Virus record (IMG/VR): IMGVR_UViG_3300045988_141797
Reading direction: 5' to 3' (one strand)
Length of the DNA stretch: 64,000 nt
DNA from: a virus
Lineage: Duplodnaviria > Heunggongvirae > Uroviricota > Caudoviricetes
Of this stretch, positions 21,154 through 26,876 are shown in pieces. A program made the position numbers and the translations under genes. The notes under the pieces are model-generated. The model searched no databases. It was not told where the DNA came from and was given only the letters and a program-made list of their open reading frames with translations. Positions within the stretch are counted from its first letter, which is position 1, and each line of letters begins with the position of its first letter.

Positions 21154-21948
21154 TTATGGTTCCTTTTTAGTGTTGCTTTGGAGCGCATCGATCACACCTT
21201 GTGGCATGATCAAACTGATTGCCGGACTCATTACTTCATCGCCCAGTAGAGAACCGGTTAACGTAATAGCTACAGCATTCTCCAGTCCCTGTTTGGCTTT
21301 TCCGGTAGAGTCCTTAACTTGCTGTACAAGTGTTGAGAGACTACTGCTCGTGTTGTTTATTGCATTTATTTGTTCTGTTGCTGCTTCCACTGCGTCTTTT
21401 AGTGCTTTGATCTCTTCTTCTGTTAGTGCTGGTTGCTGTGTTGTTCCGGTGGAACTTCCGTTGCCTGAAGCCTCCCCGCTTGACGCCTGAACTTTTGCAT
21501 TTATAGCGGTCATGGCTGAAGTGATTGGCACCAGTTCAAATGCTGCCAACGCGTCAATAAGCGATTGCGGATGCAGGGTATCTCCCATAACTGTTACGAG
21601 AGCAAATTCTGGCGCAGGAGATAACTCATTACCTTTGACGTAACATTCCCAGCCAATTTTCATCTGAAGTAATTCAGTTGGCGAAGTATACGGAGACAGC
21701 GAGTCGGCTAAATTGGTTGCTTCTGCACTGACAGTTTTCAGTTGTTCTGAAAAGACAGAAAGCTGATTGACCCATGAAACCACCGACGCCGGGTATGCTT
21801 TATCCTTCAGGATAAGAGCCTGGATATTCTCTTCCAGAGAACTGGCATTGGATGACGCTGTTTTACTTAGCGTGATAGATGCAGGCGTAGTTGTGCCTGA
21901 TGCATTTAGAATTTTGAATGCATTAACTTCAGCGATTGAATCAAGCAT
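21154..21948 (-). CDS. hypothetical protein
   Basis: 264-aa ORF between PAAR-like gene and spanins. Confidence 0.3.
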   Translation of the reverse strand: MLDSIAEVNAFKILNASGTTTPASITLSKTASSNASSLEENIQALILKDKAYPASVVSWVNQLSVFSEQLKTVSAEATNLADSLSPYTSPTELLQMKIGWECYVKGNELSPAPEFALVTVMGDTLHPQSLIDALAAFELVPITSAMTAINAKVQASSGEASGNGSSTGTTQQPALTEEEIKALKDAVEAATEQINAINNTSSSLSTLVQQVKDSTGKAKQGLENAVAITLTGSLLGDEVMSPAISLIMPQGVIDALQSNTKKEP

Positions 21949-22232
21949 TATGACACCTGAAAAATTGCCTCACCATTGGCGATGACTGAGCCACAAGAAA
22001 GGGGATCTCCCACACAAACAACTCCTTTCCCGCCTATTGCAAACCATGAGCGCGTCGATACGGCTGATCCGGGGTGCGCGCTATTTCCGTCTGTATGGCT
22101 GGGGAACGCTCCCCCATCTACAACTACTGGCTTTCCATTTACGGTAAACCAGGAAACTGTTTCTGCTACAGGTCGCGGAGGGAATCCTCCATGACCAGAA
22201 CAAACTGTGTCACTGGTCGCTATTGCACTCAT
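21948..22232 (-). CDS. PAAR-like spike-tip protein
   Basis: 94 aa, Gly/Cys/His-rich with CSGHGG and GDPLSCGSVIANGEA. Confidence 0.45.
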   Translation of the reverse strand: MSAIATSDTVCSGHGGFPPRPVAETVSWFTVNGKPVVVDGGAFPSHTDGNSAHPGSAVSTRSWFAIGGKGVVCVGDPLSCGSVIANGEAIFQVS

Positions 22233-22289
22233 CTAACACCTCCTTTTTCTTAAATCTTCTCCACTTTGTGATTTTCACTCTTCAGATTT

Positions 22290-22400
22290 CTTACTTCTCA
22301 TATTTGTCTCTGATTTGTCTCAAAAGGGTATCATGGGTACATCATGTATCATCTAAGTCTCTTTTGTGTCTCTTTTACGTCTCTAGTTTGATGCTTTTTA
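22290..22400. repeat. parC-like centromere repeats upstream of parM
   Basis: reiterated TTTGTCTC / TGTGTCTC / TACGTCTC units. Confidence 0.4.
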
Positions 22401-22481
22401 CGCTATCTAACTTCTGGTCTTATTTTGTTTTCTCATATAAAATTCAATTCTTTCTCAAATGTGTCTCAGAAGTGGAGCAAT

Positions 22482-23441
22482 ATGATGCGCATTTTTATCG
22501 ACGATGGTTCTACCAATATCAAAATGCTGTGGGAACAAGACGGGGAAACTCGAACCCATATCTGTCCGAACAGTTTTAAACGTGGATGGTCCGCCACATT
22601 TGGCGCAGGAAAGCCGTTTAACTACATCATTGATGACGAAAAATATTCATATGACTTGATTTCGCCGGATGTGCTGCCGACGAATAATGTGGAATGGCAA
22701 TACAGCCCGCTTAATGTGCTTGCTGTTCATCATGCCCTGCTTACAAGTGGCATTGAGCCTCAAGAAGTGGAAATAGTTGTCACGTTGCCACTGGCAGAGT
22801 TTTATGACGACGACGCACAATACAACATGAAAAATATTGAGCGGAAAAAGGCCAGCCTGATGCGACCAGTCACCCTTAACAAAGGTCAGGTTTTTACTAT
22901 CAAAAAAGTGACTGTGCGCCCGGAGTCAATACCCGCAGGGATCGGTCTGTGCGACAGCCTTGTGCCAGCGCATTCTGTGCTTATTGTTGATCTTGGTGGG
23001 ACTACTCTGGATGTGTCGATGGTCGCCGGGCAAATGACCGCCGTTTCTCGCGTATTTGGCGATTCTAATCTCGGCGTTTCGCTGGTAACTAAAGAGGTCA
23101 GACAGGCACTTGCAAAAGCGAATACCGAAACCTCTAATTATAATGTCGATCAATTAATCATTAATCGTGATGATGAGGATTATTTGACCGACAATATTAA
23201 CGATCCGTCTGCTATTGATGATGTTAAGAAAGCCATTTCGTCAAGCATAGAACGACTCCGTACACGCGTACTGGATGTGATCAGTGATTTCAAAGGATAC
23301 ACGCATGTTATGGTCATTGGTGGCGGCGCGCCGCTTGTTGCTGATGCTATCCGTGAGCAGGTAAACATTCGTGACGATAGGTTTTTCGTTGCTGATGATC
23401 CACAACTTGCTCTTGTCTATGGTCTAAAATCTATCGGTTGA
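22482..23441 (+). CDS. parM: actin-like plasmid segregation ATPase
   Basis: N-terminus MMRIFIDDGSTNIK...PNSFK and VLAVHHALLTSG match the ParM/StbA family; GGAG RBS. Confidence 0.85.
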   Translation: MMRIFIDDGSTNIKMLWEQDGETRTHICPNSFKRGWSATFGAGKPFNYIIDDEKYSYDLISPDVLPTNNVEWQYSPLNVLAVHHALLTSGIEPQEVEIVVTLPLAEFYDDDAQYNMKNIERKKASLMRPVTLNKGQVFTIKKVTVRPESIPAGIGLCDSLVPAHSVLIVDLGGTTLDVSMVAGQMTAVSRVFGDSNLGVSLVTKEVRQALAKANTETSNYNVDQLIINRDDEDYLTDNINDPSAIDDVKKAISSSIERLRTRVLDVISDFKGYTHVMVIGGGAPLVADAIREQVNIRDDRFFVADDPQLALVYGLKSIG

Positions 23442-23451
23442 TGAGGTTGCC

Positions 23452-23817
23452 ATGTCTCAGGAACGTCGAAAAGTATTGTTTTATCTTCGTCCTGGTCTTA
23501 ACGCCAGTGAGCAATATGCTGATGCAAAACTTGAGGGCCATCCATTAAGAGATCGCAATGATATGGCGCGCACAGCGATGCTTGCAGGTATCGCTCTTGG
23601 CGAGGTTGATAGCAGATTACCTCCCATGTTGGCATCGCTTTTATCCGGTGATAATAGCCCTGAAGTGATCAGAAAAATGCTGGTTTCATTTCTTGAAATT
23701 TCGCCTGAAGTTCGGGAAAACCCTGAAGGAAACCCCTCAGCCTCAGCGGATGTTAAAAAACCTGGCGTTTCGAAAAGCCGCTCTGCACAGAATTTGGCAA
23801 ACTCACTCCCTGATTAA
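23452..23817 (+). CDS. parR: ParR-like centromere-binding adaptor
   Basis: 121 aa immediately downstream of parM; N-terminal RHH-like region, acidic/disordered tail. Confidence 0.6.
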   Translation: MSQERRKVLFYLRPGLNASEQYADAKLEGHPLRDRNDMARTAMLAGIALGEVDSRLPPMLASLLSGDNSPEVIRKMLVSFLEISPEVRENPEGNPSASADVKKPGVSKSRSAQNLANSLPD

Positions 23818-23879
23818 CAAATCTACATCTTCAAAGGCTGCAATTTGCAGCCTTTTTTATACTGTTATGGTTCTAATTT

Positions 23880-23935
23880 GGTGCTCTTTTAGTACCAAAA
23901 CGGTGTTGTTGTGGTGCTGTTTTGTGTCTGGTTCC
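23880..23935. repeat. centromere-like repeats upstream of parA
   Basis: AGTACCAAAACGGTGTTGTT and a related GTGGTGCTGTTTTG unit. Confidence 0.5.
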
Positions 23936-24102
23936 ACTTTGAGGCTGATTTCGTGTTAAACAGGATGCAACAGAGGGCAAATTTCGAGTGTTTAGTGTTA
24001 TACTTTTGCAAAGCATAGTGACTCCACTATAGAGCCAAAACCGCATCAATAAGGCTTCTGTTTGGAGCCATTTTGATACCAAAATAACACCGAGGGACGG
24101 AT

Positions 24103-24744
24103 ATGATTATATTGGTAGCCAGCCAAAAAGGTGGCTGTGGCAAATCAACCACCAGCGTAAACATTTGTGCGGAGCTTGCCCGCGCAAATAAGGACGTAGT
24201 TCTACTTGATGCAGATAAGCAAGGAACATCTGCCCGTTGGGCATCGGACCGTAATGCGGCAGAGGTTTCTCCAGTAATTCATTGCGTCCAGAAGTTTGGG
24301 AATATTCGTGAAACACTTCTTGATCTGGACAAGCGTTATGAATTTGTGGTTGTTGATACCGCTGGTCGTGATAGCAAAGAGATGCGCACCGGTATTACTG
24401 CGGCGGATGTTTTGCTTGTTCCATTCAGGCCATCTCAGCCAGATTTAGACACGCTGGCGCATTTTGTTGAAGTCTTTGAAGAGGCTTTGGATCTGATGCC
24501 TAATCCTAGCATTAAGGCGTGCGCAGTTTTAACAATGGCCCCATCCAATCCGGTTGTGAATGAAGCCAATGAGGCCAAAGAGTACCTGGCTGAATATCCG
24601 CAACTGAAGTTGCTGAAAACCATCATTCGCGATCGCAAGGTTTACCGCGATTGTATGGCTGAAGGGAAGGGCGTTGTTGAGATGGACAACGGGAAAGCTA
24701 AAGGTGAAATCCAGATGTTGGTTAAGGAGTTATTAAGTGATTAA
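24103..24744 (+). CDS. parA: small Walker-type partition ATPase (type Ib ParA/ParF-like)
   Basis: deviant Walker A KGGCGKST, 213 aa. Confidence 0.8.
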   Translation: MIILVASQKGGCGKSTTSVNICAELARANKDVVLLDADKQGTSARWASDRNAAEVSPVIHCVQKFGNIRETLLDLDKRYEFVVVDTAGRDSKEMRTGITAADVLLVPFRPSQPDLDTLAHFVEVFEEALDLMPNPSIKACAVLTMAPSNPVVNEANEAKEYLAEYPQLKLLKTIIRDRKVYRDCMAEGKGVVEMDNGKAKGEIQMLVKELLSD

Positions 24745-25024
24745 GCCTCGTAAATCGGTAAAAGCCCCCGAAGTAAAAGACCTCGATCTTGAACGCCGAA
24801 TTGAGGCTTTTGCCAGCAAAGCTGATTTGGTGCCGGGTGAGCAACCAGAAGACAACAAAGTGCTCGATAAGGACGCCCCACGTGATTTTAAATCCATTCG
24901 TGTTGGCTTCAATGAATACGAGTACCAGGTACTTGATGCGTTAAGCAAAAAGCATAATCGCAGCAAATTGAATATGATCCGCCATGCTATCCTCATGCTT
25001 GCAGAGTCTGAGGATACAAAATGA
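24737..25024 (+). CDS. small ParG/ParB-like partner with RHH-like C-terminus
   Basis: 95 aa, overlap-coupled to parA. Confidence 0.5.
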   Translation: MIKPRKSVKAPEVKDLDLERRIEAFASKADLVPGEQPEDNKVLDKDAPRDFKSIRVGFNEYEYQVLDALSKKHNRSKLNMIRHAILMLAESEDTK

Positions 25025-25029
25025 CGCCG

Positions 25030-25130
25030 GAATGACACCGTTTTGGGTCCATGTGTTATTTTGAGGCTACTTTGATTCCTTTTTAGTACCAGAATGGTGT
25101 TGTTAGTGTACCGTAACGGTGCTTGTTTGA
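25030..25130. repeat. centromere-like repeats downstream of the parA operon
   Basis: CACCGTTTTGG (inverted), AGTACCAGAATGGTGTTGTT, AGTGTACCGTAACGGTGCTTG; same family as 23880-23935. Confidence 0.5.
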
Positions 25131-25159
25131 TGTTATAAAAGCCCCATATGGGGCTTTTC

Positions 25160-26002
25160 TTAATTAAGTGTGGCTATAATGTCGTTAGCTATCATTCGCG
25201 TTGATGCTTTACAGGATACAGAGCGACGGGATGGCATAGGATACACCTTGAAGCCATTGCCAACGTAAAGTTCGCGAATGTTAGGCGCACCACTGTTTGT
25301 TATCACAATTTTCGCTCCGCGTCTGTGGGCATCCACCAGCAGTGACACCAGCCGTTGTTGATCTTCAAACCTAAAGCTATGCCCTGAGTAATTTGTAAAT
25401 CCGGTAGTGTCGGGCAATGGTTCATAGGGGGGATCGCAGAAAATCACATCATCATTCCCGGCAGCCTCAATTACACCAGCAAAATCGCCGGACACAAATT
25501 CCGAATACTTTGAAATATCGTCAGCCAGGAACGCCTCCATTTCCGCGAGAGGGAAGTGGGGTGATTTCTGCTTTCCATATCCGACGTTGAACTCTCCTTT
25601 ACGGTTATAGCGAGTGACGCCATTAAAACAATGACGATTGAGATACAGGAACGCCGCTGCATGGTGAAGGGAATCATAAGCACCATTGTTGAATGCATTG
25701 CGAACATTCAAAAATGCATCAGCAGAGTTGTAATCCTGAAAAAAACGATATGCCAGTGTGATAAGAGAATGCCCTTCACGCTGCAATGTCTGATAGAAGT
25801 TAATCAGGTCATTATTGATATCGTTCAGCAGGTTGCTTTTAAATCCGGCATTAGTGAAAACAGCGCCACCTCCAACGAAAGGTTCTATCAACCGTTTTCC
25901 GTGGGGCAGGTGTTCGAAGATAATGGGCAGTGCAGAAAATTTGCCGCCGACCCACTTAAAGACTGGGCGATCAAATTCGTCCTCCGAGCGAATACGTCGC
26001 AT
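25160..26002 (-). CDS. dam: DNA adenine (N6) methyltransferase, Dam-like
   Basis: FKWVGGK N-terminal motif and DPPY catalytic motif; ORF-track start 26194 rejected in favour of the ATG at 26002. Confidence 0.8.
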   Translation of the reverse strand: MRRIRSEDEFDRPVFKWVGGKFSALPIIFEHLPHGKRLIEPFVGGGAVFTNAGFKSNLLNDINNDLINFYQTLQREGHSLITLAYRFFQDYNSADAFLNVRNAFNNGAYDSLHHAAAFLYLNRHCFNGVTRYNRKGEFNVGYGKQKSPHFPLAEMEAFLADDISKYSEFVSGDFAGVIEAAGNDDVIFCDPPYEPLPDTTGFTNYSGHSFRFEDQQRLVSLLVDAHRRGAKIVITNSGAPNIRELYVGNGFKVYPMPSRRSVSCKASTRMIANDIIATLN

Positions 26003-26069
26003 ATGGCTGATAGTGGCTTCCGCCGCAGGACGATGATTGTCGCTATAAGAAATAAATTTAGCACCAATA

Positions 26070-26876
26070 TCAGCCACGGATTCCCTCCTTATTTGCTTCA
26101 AATACAGCTCTTGCAAAACCGTAAGGTGTCGCGCTACGAAAATTCGCTCTTTCAGGCCCTGGCGGTGCCTTGTGTATTCGGTTATCTGGATCACCTAACG
26201 ACTTGTCGATTCGCGGAGTTGGCATGATGAATCCTTGTCCGCTCCACAGGCATGTTTTTTTGGTGTAATTGTCTTCCTTGCAATATGCAGTGAAGTGATA
26301 AGGATGGAATATGTGATCAGGTTTACGCCAGAATGTCGATATTTGGCTGACCGGGTTTTCAATCATGTACGGGCAACCAATCATCTTTGCAATGTCGTAA
26401 CACTGCCAGACAACCTGCATTGCTTTGAACTGGAAAACCGGATCTTTTTTTGCTTTATCTGCGAACCAGCGTGCGCCAGATACAGCCAGGTCAGTACATG
26501 GAGGGAAACCGGCTAAAAATACAACTCTGTGCAAATTTTTCCGAAGGAAATTGTAGACCTCATCACTGTCAATAATTGCGCTGATACGTGTGAGTACAGC
26601 ACCTGACTCCATCAATTGGCTGCCGGACTCCTGGTGTTGCGGATCGACAATGACTGCATCAATGCCGTGTTCCAGCCAGGGGGAAACCATATTCCCTGTA
26701 TAATCACAAAGACTCACCGCCAGCGGTCGGTTATTAATGCTCTGCTTCACCGCCAATGGCCTCCACCAGCGAGCTAAACATCGCGGATAATTCGCTTGTG
26801 AACAGAATGAAGTCAGCATCAAATCGCTGGGCAACATCTTCACGGTCGATGTCATCGTTCTGGTCATAGAGATCAT
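26070..26876 (-). CDS. DNA cytosine-C5 methyltransferase-like
   Basis: PC motif (AGFPPCTD) and ENV motif (MIENPV); true start probably internal (about 26819-26855), it overlaps the rdgC 3' end. Confidence 0.55.
   Translation of the reverse strand: MISMTRTMTSTVKMLPSDLMLTSFCSQANYPRCLARWWRPLAVKQSINNRPLAVSLCDYTGNMVSPWLEHGIDAVIVDPQHQESGSQLMESGAVLTRISAIIDSDEVYNFLRKNLHRVVFLAGFPPCTDLAVSGARWFADKAKKDPVFQFKAMQVVWQCYDIAKMIGCPYMIENPVSQISTFWRKPDHIFHPYHFTAYCKEDNYTKKTCLWSGQGFIMPTPRIDKSLGDPDNRIHKAPPGPERANFRSATPYGFARAVFEANKEGIRG

Follow-up and report, generated by a model that had tools for sequence, protein, structure and literature searches.

Two predicted partition cassettes in tandem on a phage-plasmid

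We analyzed a 64,000-nucleotide stretch of viral DNA (IMG/VR record IMGVR_UViG_3300045988_141797; the whole stretch is referred to as the window) and focused on positions 22290-25160, where the list of open reading frames (ORFs) and the sequence revealed four intact ORFs on the plus strand, organized as two separately terminated operons. The first operon carries parM (22485-23441), encoding an actin-like segregation ATPase of 318 amino acids (aa), and parR (23452-23817), encoding a 121-aa adaptor of the StbB type. The second carries parA (24103-24744), encoding a small 213-aa ATPase with a deviant Walker A motif, and an ORF for a 95-aa protein (orf95; 24737-25024, GTG start) that is a candidate centromere-binding protein. 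An earlier sequence-only reading of this DNA had proposed two complete partition systems, one of type II and one of type Ib, lying within 300 bp of each other. All four genes were indeed found at the positions it gave and on the plus strand, and the parR stop codon is separated from the parA start codon by 285 bp. We regard 22290-25160 as very probably the plasmid-inheritance region of a D6-like phage-plasmid of E. coli, in which an actin-type and a Walker-type partition cassette are arranged in tandem.

The closest plasmid, NZ_LR890273 (E. coli, 92.8 kb, non-mobilisable), was 99.7% identical across 3 kb, and six other plasmids matched the 3-kb region at 94-99% identity. A further 113 plasmids from Escherichia, Salmonella, and Shigella matched at about 88% identity in the coding parts only, and the matching related plasmids were all about 90 kb in size. 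In a phage collection, the sole match to the locus was phage D6 (85% identity). The flanks consist of phage genes, with PAAR/upfC-like and upfB-like genes upstream and dam, rdgC, baseplate, and tail genes downstream. On the basis of the near-identical plasmid DNA, the D6 match, and the phage flanking genes, the replicon is assigned to the D6-like phage-plasmids, a group named P1 subgroup 2 (PMC7969092). The locus was matched in all 122 related plasmids, and the same tandem arrangement was present there and in phage D6.

Genes of this kind have been annotated before. For the D6-like plasmid pYU39_89, a 2019 paper listed parA, stbB, and parM as partition functions (PMC6799933). In the D6 record (NC_050154), according to its GenBank notes, orf58 and orf59 encode stability proteins of the StbA and StbB types, orf60 encodes a "ParA-like partition protein", and orf61 is hypothetical. 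The closest complete plasmid has no annotated partition genes besides the double locus; a third system of the P1 ParAB type was therefore rejected as a candidate.

The actin-type cassette and two ParR/iteron alleles

ParM matched the Pfam families StbA_N (2e-69) and ParM C-terminal domain (9e-56) and aligned over its full length with the crystal structures of R1 ParM in the PDB (E = 1e-110). The parR gene starts 10 nt past the parM stop codon; its product matched Plasmid_stab_B of the StbB family in Pfam (3e-14), and its only real PDB match was pB171 ParR (2jd3, 3.9e-7). The operon ends at a predicted intrinsic terminator (23833-23855, plus strand), a strong stem-loop with a T-run that was conserved in six D6-like variants.

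Upstream of parM lies a parC-like iteron region (22290-22390, plus strand) in which 11-bp units sharing a GTCTC core form two clusters. Cluster 1 has units at 22295, 22306, and 22317 and a degenerate unit at 22328, and cluster 2 begins with a degenerate unit at 22346 that is followed by units at 22357, 22368, and 22379. On one strand, GTCTC occurs five times across 22306-22379, with spacings of 11, 40, 11, and 11. The TGTCTC-type repeats that the sequence-only reading had noted upstream of parM were borne out by a search for GTCTC-N6-GTCTC with up to one mismatch: seven of the eight matches in the 64 kb fell at 22295-22467, and none of 100 shuffles reached eight matches. Lag-11 autocorrelation upstream of parM gave z = +5.7. 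In addition, a promoter-proximal iteron pair, TTCTCAAATGTGTCTCAG (22451-22470, plus strand), adjoins the parM ribosome-binding site and was conserved in both of the ParR alleles described below.

The ParR of the window shared 56-60% identity with the 112-aa ParR of other D6-like elements (60% in the case of D6), and the 112-aa proteins were 88-99% identical to one another. ParM was 94-95% identical between the window and the elements with a 112-aa ParR. The divergence of ParR sits in its N-terminal half, the half that binds DNA in the structure of pB171 ParR, and the C-terminal tail (NLA[ND]SLPD) was conserved across both alleles; in R1, the C-terminal tail is the part of ParR that contacts ParM. 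D6 and four other D6-like plasmids also carry two iteron clusters about 40 bp apart in the same place, with the core TTCTCAA instead of GTCTCT. The window carries the minor allele: ParR of its type (at least 95% identity) was found in only seven plasmids, and the other 262 ParR-matching plasmids, D6-like or otherwise, were all below 60% identity to it, with no intermediates. At the sequence level, the D6-like lineage contains two discrete, co-varying alleles of predicted ParR/iteron specificity, one combining the 121-aa protein with GTCTCT and the other the 112-aa protein with TTCTCAA. That protein and iterons vary together is the strongest evidence at hand for reading the iterons as candidate ParR sites.

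The Walker-type motor and its ribbon-helix-helix partner

ParA contains the deviant Walker A motif KGGCGKST at residues 9-16, has no N-terminal DNA-binding domain, and matched the NCBIfam family ParA_partition end to end (2e-46, 158 bits). Its best solved relatives in the PDB were TP228 ParF and ParA (3e-18), and it shared 43% identity along its entire length with pMAR2 ParA, a par2 protein of the pB171 type. At E up to 1e-30, this family of small ParA proteins was represented in over 3,300 plasmids.

The ORF for the 95-aa protein has an 8-nt overlap with parA at the parA stop codon, and its product is predicted to be translationally coupled to ParA. Searches of Pfam, NCBIfam, and the PDB with the single sequence gave no match. 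A word-indexed search recovered near-identical relatives only, and the family was reached by an exhaustive search, which yielded 101 cluster representatives at E up to 1e-3. In the family alignment, a basic N-terminus (M-x-K-x-R, with M1 and R5 at least 90% conserved) precedes the motif IExFAxxAD, conserved in 50 homologs, then a variable linker, and a C-terminal block, FKxIRVPFNEYEYxxLExxAxxxGRSKLNxIRxAI. When members were scanned singly, 21 of 50 matched the NikA-like ribbon-helix-helix (RHH) family and 14 more matched RHH_1; others matched TraY, RHH_7, and TacA. A PDB search with the family profile returned as its best matches the RHH proteins HP0222 and CopG at a non-significant E of about 0.2-0.3. 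The AlphaFold model of the 95-aa protein had a mean predicted local distance difference test (pLDDT) score of 86, rising above 92 over residues 51-90; in it, a first helix (residues 16-29) is followed by an extended segment and then by two further helices (60-72 and 77-92). Given the RHH matches of the family members and the predicted fold, the 95-aa protein is assigned an RHH fold and is predicted to bind DNA. It is built like ParG and pB171 ParB, the centromere-binding proteins of type Ib systems, which makes it a plausible adaptor, in agreement with its earlier designation as the partner of ParA.

All named members of the family are annotated as "hypothetical protein", and the corresponding PHROG family is listed under "unknown function". 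On Serratia, Arsenophonus, and Moraxella plasmids, the gene for the homolog overlaps or directly adjoins a small gene annotated as "AAA family ATPase", and in the Acinetobacter plasmid NZ_CP087315 about 50 bp separate it from the gene for a ParA homolog upstream. In the plasmids of these four genera the pair occurs without ParMR, and in Arsenophonus paIh6 it is located directly past the replication initiator gene (repA). Judged from this distribution, the ParA and RHH genes form a mobile two-gene module. Homologs of the 95-aa protein were also present on the chromosomes of Sodalis glossinidius and S. praecaptivus and on a 1.5-Mb replicon of Pantoea cypripedii; since these are very large contigs, the family is not confined to small plasmids.

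Repeat arrays and promoter of the parA operon

According to the sequence-only reading, repeats bracket the ParA locus in direct and inverted orientation. All four matches to GTACCAAAACGGTG in the window (up to two mismatches) were found to flank parA, at 23892 (plus strand), 25036 (minus strand), 25086 (plus strand), and 25108 (plus strand). When the DNA was laid out in 11-bp register, these 14-mers proved to be parts of longer arrays of 11-bp-phased units, each unit being an 8-bp pseudo-palindrome resembling TGGYRCCA at a spacing of 11 bp.

The upstream array (23868-23936, plus strand), candidate centromere 1, consists of six to seven 11-bp units, namely TGGTTCTA, TGGTGCTC, TAGTACCA, CGGTGTTG, TGGTGCTG, (TGTGTCTG), and TGGTTCCA, and an analogous array was found in all relatives. 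It is followed by an extended -10 element, TGTTATACT (23996-24004, plus strand), a candidate parA promoter. The extended -10, TG(T/C)TATACT, occupied an identical position in six of six D6-like variants with diverged flanks; a strict consensus promoter scan, which found no credible promoter for either operon, had missed it. Between the -10 element and the ribosome-binding site, the 5' untranslated region (5'UTR) holds a further array (24019-24092, plus strand) of seven in-phase 11-bp units, TGACTCCA, TAGAGCCA, CCGCATCA, AGGCTTCT, TGGAGCCA, TGATACCA, and TAACACCG, which is a candidate operator or a second part of the upstream centromere. It would be an operator because 23996-24004 is taken as the parA promoter. 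The downstream array (25033-25135, plus strand), candidate centromere 2, has about nine 11-bp-phased units, including an inverted CACCGTTTTGGGTC, GTACCAGAATGGTG, and GTACCGTAACGGTG; analogous downstream arrays were recognized by periodicity in D6 and in the related loci L003 and L005 and by reading of the sequence in L009-L011.

Lag-11 autocorrelation gave z = +5.3 in the intergenic region upstream of parA and z = +3.4 downstream, and the signal was significant on both flanks in the window, D6, L003, and the Serratia locus L005 (z 3.2-5.3). In the AT-rich Arsenophonus flanks, the motif was visible by reading and the lag-11 signal was not significant. A weight matrix obtained by expectation-maximization, trained on the flanks of D6 and L003 only, converged on TGGYRCCA. 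With this matrix, the densest 150-bp bin in the 64 kb started at 23926, with 9 hits against 1.04 expected, and covered the end of the upstream array together with the 5'UTR array. Across six D6-like variants, the intergenic DNA was 40-78% identical or unalignable, and the unit cores, the parR terminator, the ribosome-binding site, and the extended -10 stayed in place. Each system is accompanied by its own set of 11-bp-phased repeats beyond chance expectation, which agrees with the earlier suggestion that the repeats are candidate centromeres.

Past the downstream array, a perfect palindrome bordered by runs of A and T, AAAAGCCCCATATGGGGCTTTT (25137-25158), probably acts as a bidirectional terminator common to the parA operon and the convergent dam gene. 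With the parR terminator described above, the two cassettes are predicted to be separate operons with a terminator each.

Several observations were made on the neighboring genes. The Dam-family methyltransferase ORF that converges on the par locus (25160-26194, minus strand) encodes 344 aa from the first GTG, and 305 aa are annotated in relatives. On the other side, an ORF of 94 aa with a PAAR motif (21948-22232, minus strand; Pfam 6e-7), the equivalent of P1 upfC, borders directly on the parC region; several relatives carry an annotation for it, and the closest, NZ_LR890273, does not. A glutaminyl-tRNA synthetase gene, glnS, separates the par locus from the methylase region in D6 (L001, 6843-8504), L009 (4344 onwards), and L011 (4049-5713). 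It is absent from the window (25025-25160) and is not annotated in L003 and L010; its position is a variable cargo slot directly past the downstream repeat array.

Selection, recombination, and genomic position

We compared the coding sequences of the window with those of D6 and other D6-like variants. The D6-like plasmid pSa1423-90k (L004, NZ_MK356557.1) was left out of these comparisons, as no par ORF is intact in its par region and the coding sequences annotated there are short and scattered; the record resembles a frameshift-filled assembly and not real gene decay. For parM, the ratio of nonsynonymous to synonymous divergence (dN/dS) between the window and other variants was 0.01-0.02 at a dS of about 2. 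For parA, it was 0.03-0.06 against D6, L003, and L011, and no amino-acid changes were found against the common D6-like variant L009 (dN 0, dS 0.03). For orf95, the values were 0.05-0.12 against D6, L003, and L011 and 0.39 against L009, the latter based on very few changes (dS 0.035). These values indicate strong purifying selection on both motors, and neither cassette appears to be decaying.

Using L009 as the reference for a profile of nucleotide identity, we found a mosaic. Identity was 40-50% in parC, 75-92% in parM, 40-70% in parR, 72-78% in the region upstream of parA, and 98-100% in parA and orf95, and the DNA downstream of orf95 was unalignable. The near-identical block extends over 24065-25024 of the window (3154-4075 of L009), and the arrays on both sides of it differ. 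Because the dS of parA-orf95 is 0.03 and that of parM about 2, we infer a recent recombination event whose breakpoints lie close to where parA starts and orf95 stops. From the mosaic profile we conclude that cassettes and their centromere regions are exchanged by recombination while the genomic slot stays the same.

Flanking sequence was read for five D6-like plasmids, and in each of them, as in D6, the locus had the same slot, order, and orientation: the PAAR/upfC gene is on one side and the methylase region on the other, the latter preceded in some elements by an inserted glnS. The closest complete plasmid has a single replicon RepB about 10.5 kb from the locus and none beside either cassette. 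The constant slot, the 122 matching plasmids, and the status of the locus as the sole partition determinant of the closest whole plasmid point to a double locus that is a trait of the lineage, reshaped by recombination at the level of cassettes.

Proposed mechanism and alternative explanations

Gene identities, repeat architecture, and conservation together make the assignment of two partition cassettes well supported, with partition itself as the predicted function. By analogy with R1, pB171, and TP228, a working scheme for binding, ATPase stimulation, autoregulation, and the stability role of both cassettes can be outlined. In the actin-type cassette, ParR dimers would bind the 11-bp-phased GTCTC iterons upstream of parM through an N-terminal RHH domain, and the resulting complex would capture ATP-bound ParM filaments through the conserved C-terminal tail of ParR, so that filament growth would push sister plasmids apart. 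Binding of ParR to the iterons probably also represses the parMR promoter. In the Walker-type cassette, RHH dimers of the 95-aa protein would coat the arrays of 8-bp pseudo-palindromes that precede and follow the parA operon and that occupy its 5'UTR. The basic N-terminus of this protein would be expected to stimulate the ATPase of nucleoid-bound ParA, and the ParA gradient would space plasmids along the nucleoid. The 5'UTR array probably gives autorepression of the operon.

Several observations weigh against this assignment. For the parMR operon, neither a sigma-70 consensus match at 22230-22480 nor, by reading, a convincing hexamer pair was found. The 158 bits of ParA lie below the NCBIfam equivalog cutoff of 180. 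PDB sequence searches with the 95-aa protein (E up to 10) recovered neither ParG nor another partition protein, and the protein has no similarity to the ParB of pB171/pMAR2 (BLASTP E 2.1; hhalign probability 1.4%). The unit consensus of the parA arrays is degenerate, and the weight matrix also picks out a few bins of moderate density in other parts of the window. It gives the downstream array a weak score; given this weakness and degeneracy, the identification of that array relies on periodicity and the 14-mer matches. The reachable literature yielded no experiment on any D6-like par gene. Finally, in other dual systems only one cassette has mattered under laboratory conditions, as in SCP1, where one of two complete partition systems alone is critical for stability (PMC13245405).

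The last point leads to an alternative that we consider rather unlikely, namely that both cassettes are intact and only one performs partition, the other being a redundant back-up or mainly a transcriptional or incompatibility determinant under most conditions. Besides the SCP1 precedent, the recombination histories of the cassettes are compatible with it: the contrast in synonymous divergence from L009 between parA-orf95 and parM is so strong that the cassettes are apparently not tightly co-adapted. However, dN/dS stays at or below 0.06 in both motors across deep synonymous divergence, and both cassettes are kept in the 122 related plasmids and in D6.

The sequence-only reading had suggested either redundancy, which may broaden the host range, or a cointegrate history. 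On the latter view, a recent fusion of two replicons would have brought together their respective partition systems. The mosaic region with its sharp identity changes at the cassette borders and the occurrence of the ParA-RHH module on its own on unrelated plasmids would fit such an origin. Nevertheless, position, order, and orientation are constant in D6 and every D6-like plasmid inspected, only one replicon RepB is present and lies away from both cassettes, and ParM (42%) and ParA (43%) are similarly diverged from the pB171-type locus. We therefore abandoned this suggestion as very unlikely. Hardly credible is the proposal that ParA and the 95-aa protein form a non-partition positioning or regulatory module, for example VirC1- or MipZ-like or acting in phage-gene control: ParA does fall short of the NCBIfam cutoff and also matches the VirC1 and MipZ profiles, and its partner is without annotated function anywhere, but the full-length identity to a pB171-type par2 ParA, the ParF proteins as best structural relatives, the coupling to an RHH protein with repeat arrays on both sides as in pMAR2 par2, and the position of the Arsenophonus paIh6 pair beside a replication initiator gene speak against it.

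Two autonomous partition cassettes arranged head to tail remain the favored assignment. A more far-reaching possibility, which we put forward as doubtful, is that the cassettes divide labor and that the adaptor and centromere parts are swappable incompatibility alleles, with ParM nearly unchanged and ParA-RHH recombining independently, and that the 95-aa protein founds a widespread, uncharacterized family of type Ib centromere-binding proteins. If so, swappable alleles could let related phage-plasmids co-reside, and the two systems could act at different stages, one on the quiescent prophage and the other on DNA that is entering the cell or undergoing lytic replication.

E. coli, Salmonella, and Shigella commonly carry phage-plasmids of the P1/D6 group, which spread resistance genes and whose inheritance at one or two copies decides their persistence. 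The present analysis completes the parts list of their locus, as the hypothetical orf61 family becomes a predicted RHH adaptor. It also provides precise candidate centromeres and a natural pair of ParR/iteron alleles suited to incompatibility comparison.

Comparison with known partition systems

The actin-type cassette resembles R1/NR1 ParMRC (StbAB) in the full-length ParM match, the Plasmid_stab_B ParR, and the 11-bp-phased iterons in two clusters upstream. In R1 parC, five plus five 11-bp iterons flank the promoter. The D6-like locus differs in having fewer clear iterons (about three to four in each cluster and the proximal pair), another iteron sequence, and a phage-plasmid as host replicon. 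The Walker-type cassette resembles TP228 ParFGH in that ParF is the best solved relative of ParA and in that ParG combines a flexible basic N-terminus with a C-terminal RHH domain, the build also of the 95-aa protein. ParG binds arrays of short repeats, and the centromere/operator of TP228 lies upstream only, whereas the arrays described here flank the operon on both sides.

Phage D6 carries the orthologous locus in orf58-orf61, with ParM 94%, ParA 96%, and orf61 96% identical to the window. It differs in the other ParR/iteron allele (ParR 60%, TTCTCAA) and in the glnS gene inserted downstream.

The pairing of type II and type Ib systems had been called uncommon in the sequence-only reading, a view that we do not share. 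pB171 is the prototype of the double par locus, which is also found in pMAR2, and Ebersbach and Gerdes reportedly found in 2001 that both halves of the pB171 locus stabilize plasmids. A 2026 survey counted 971 PLSDB plasmids with both a type I system with an RHH ParB and a type II system and termed the combination previously reported (PMC13245405). A locus of this kind has thus been known since pB171, and D6 itself is annotated with StbA, StbB, and ParA-like genes; the findings establish no new principle. What is new is modest: the family of RHH partners, the candidate centromeres, and the two co-varying ParR/iteron alleles.

As a representative of the pB171 type, we used pMAR2 from enteropathogenic E. 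coli (EPEC) E2348/69, which carries such a double locus. In pB171 and pMAR2, as in the window, a type II par1 (parMR) and a type Ib par2 (parAB) are adjacent. The window proteins were 42% (ParM), 33% (ParR), and 43% (ParA) identical to their pMAR2 counterparts, the ParA partner is small in both (91 aa in pMAR2, 95 aa here) and overlaps the parA stop codon, and arrays of short repeats lie on both sides of the parA operon. In contrast, the pB171/pMAR2 cassettes diverge from a shared central region, whereas those of the window are in tandem on the plus strand with a terminator between them. Because of this tandem layout and the intervening terminator, cross-talk through a shared operator in the pB171 style is unlikely here in the same form. 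The repeats also differ, being ATCACA and TTCATA hexamers with a 7-bp period in pMAR2 and 8-bp pseudo-palindromes at 11 bp in the window. Taken together, these comparisons identify the D6-like locus, as far as its sequence tells, as a relative of the pB171 double locus that differs in layout, in the family of its RHH adaptor, and in its centromere repeats.

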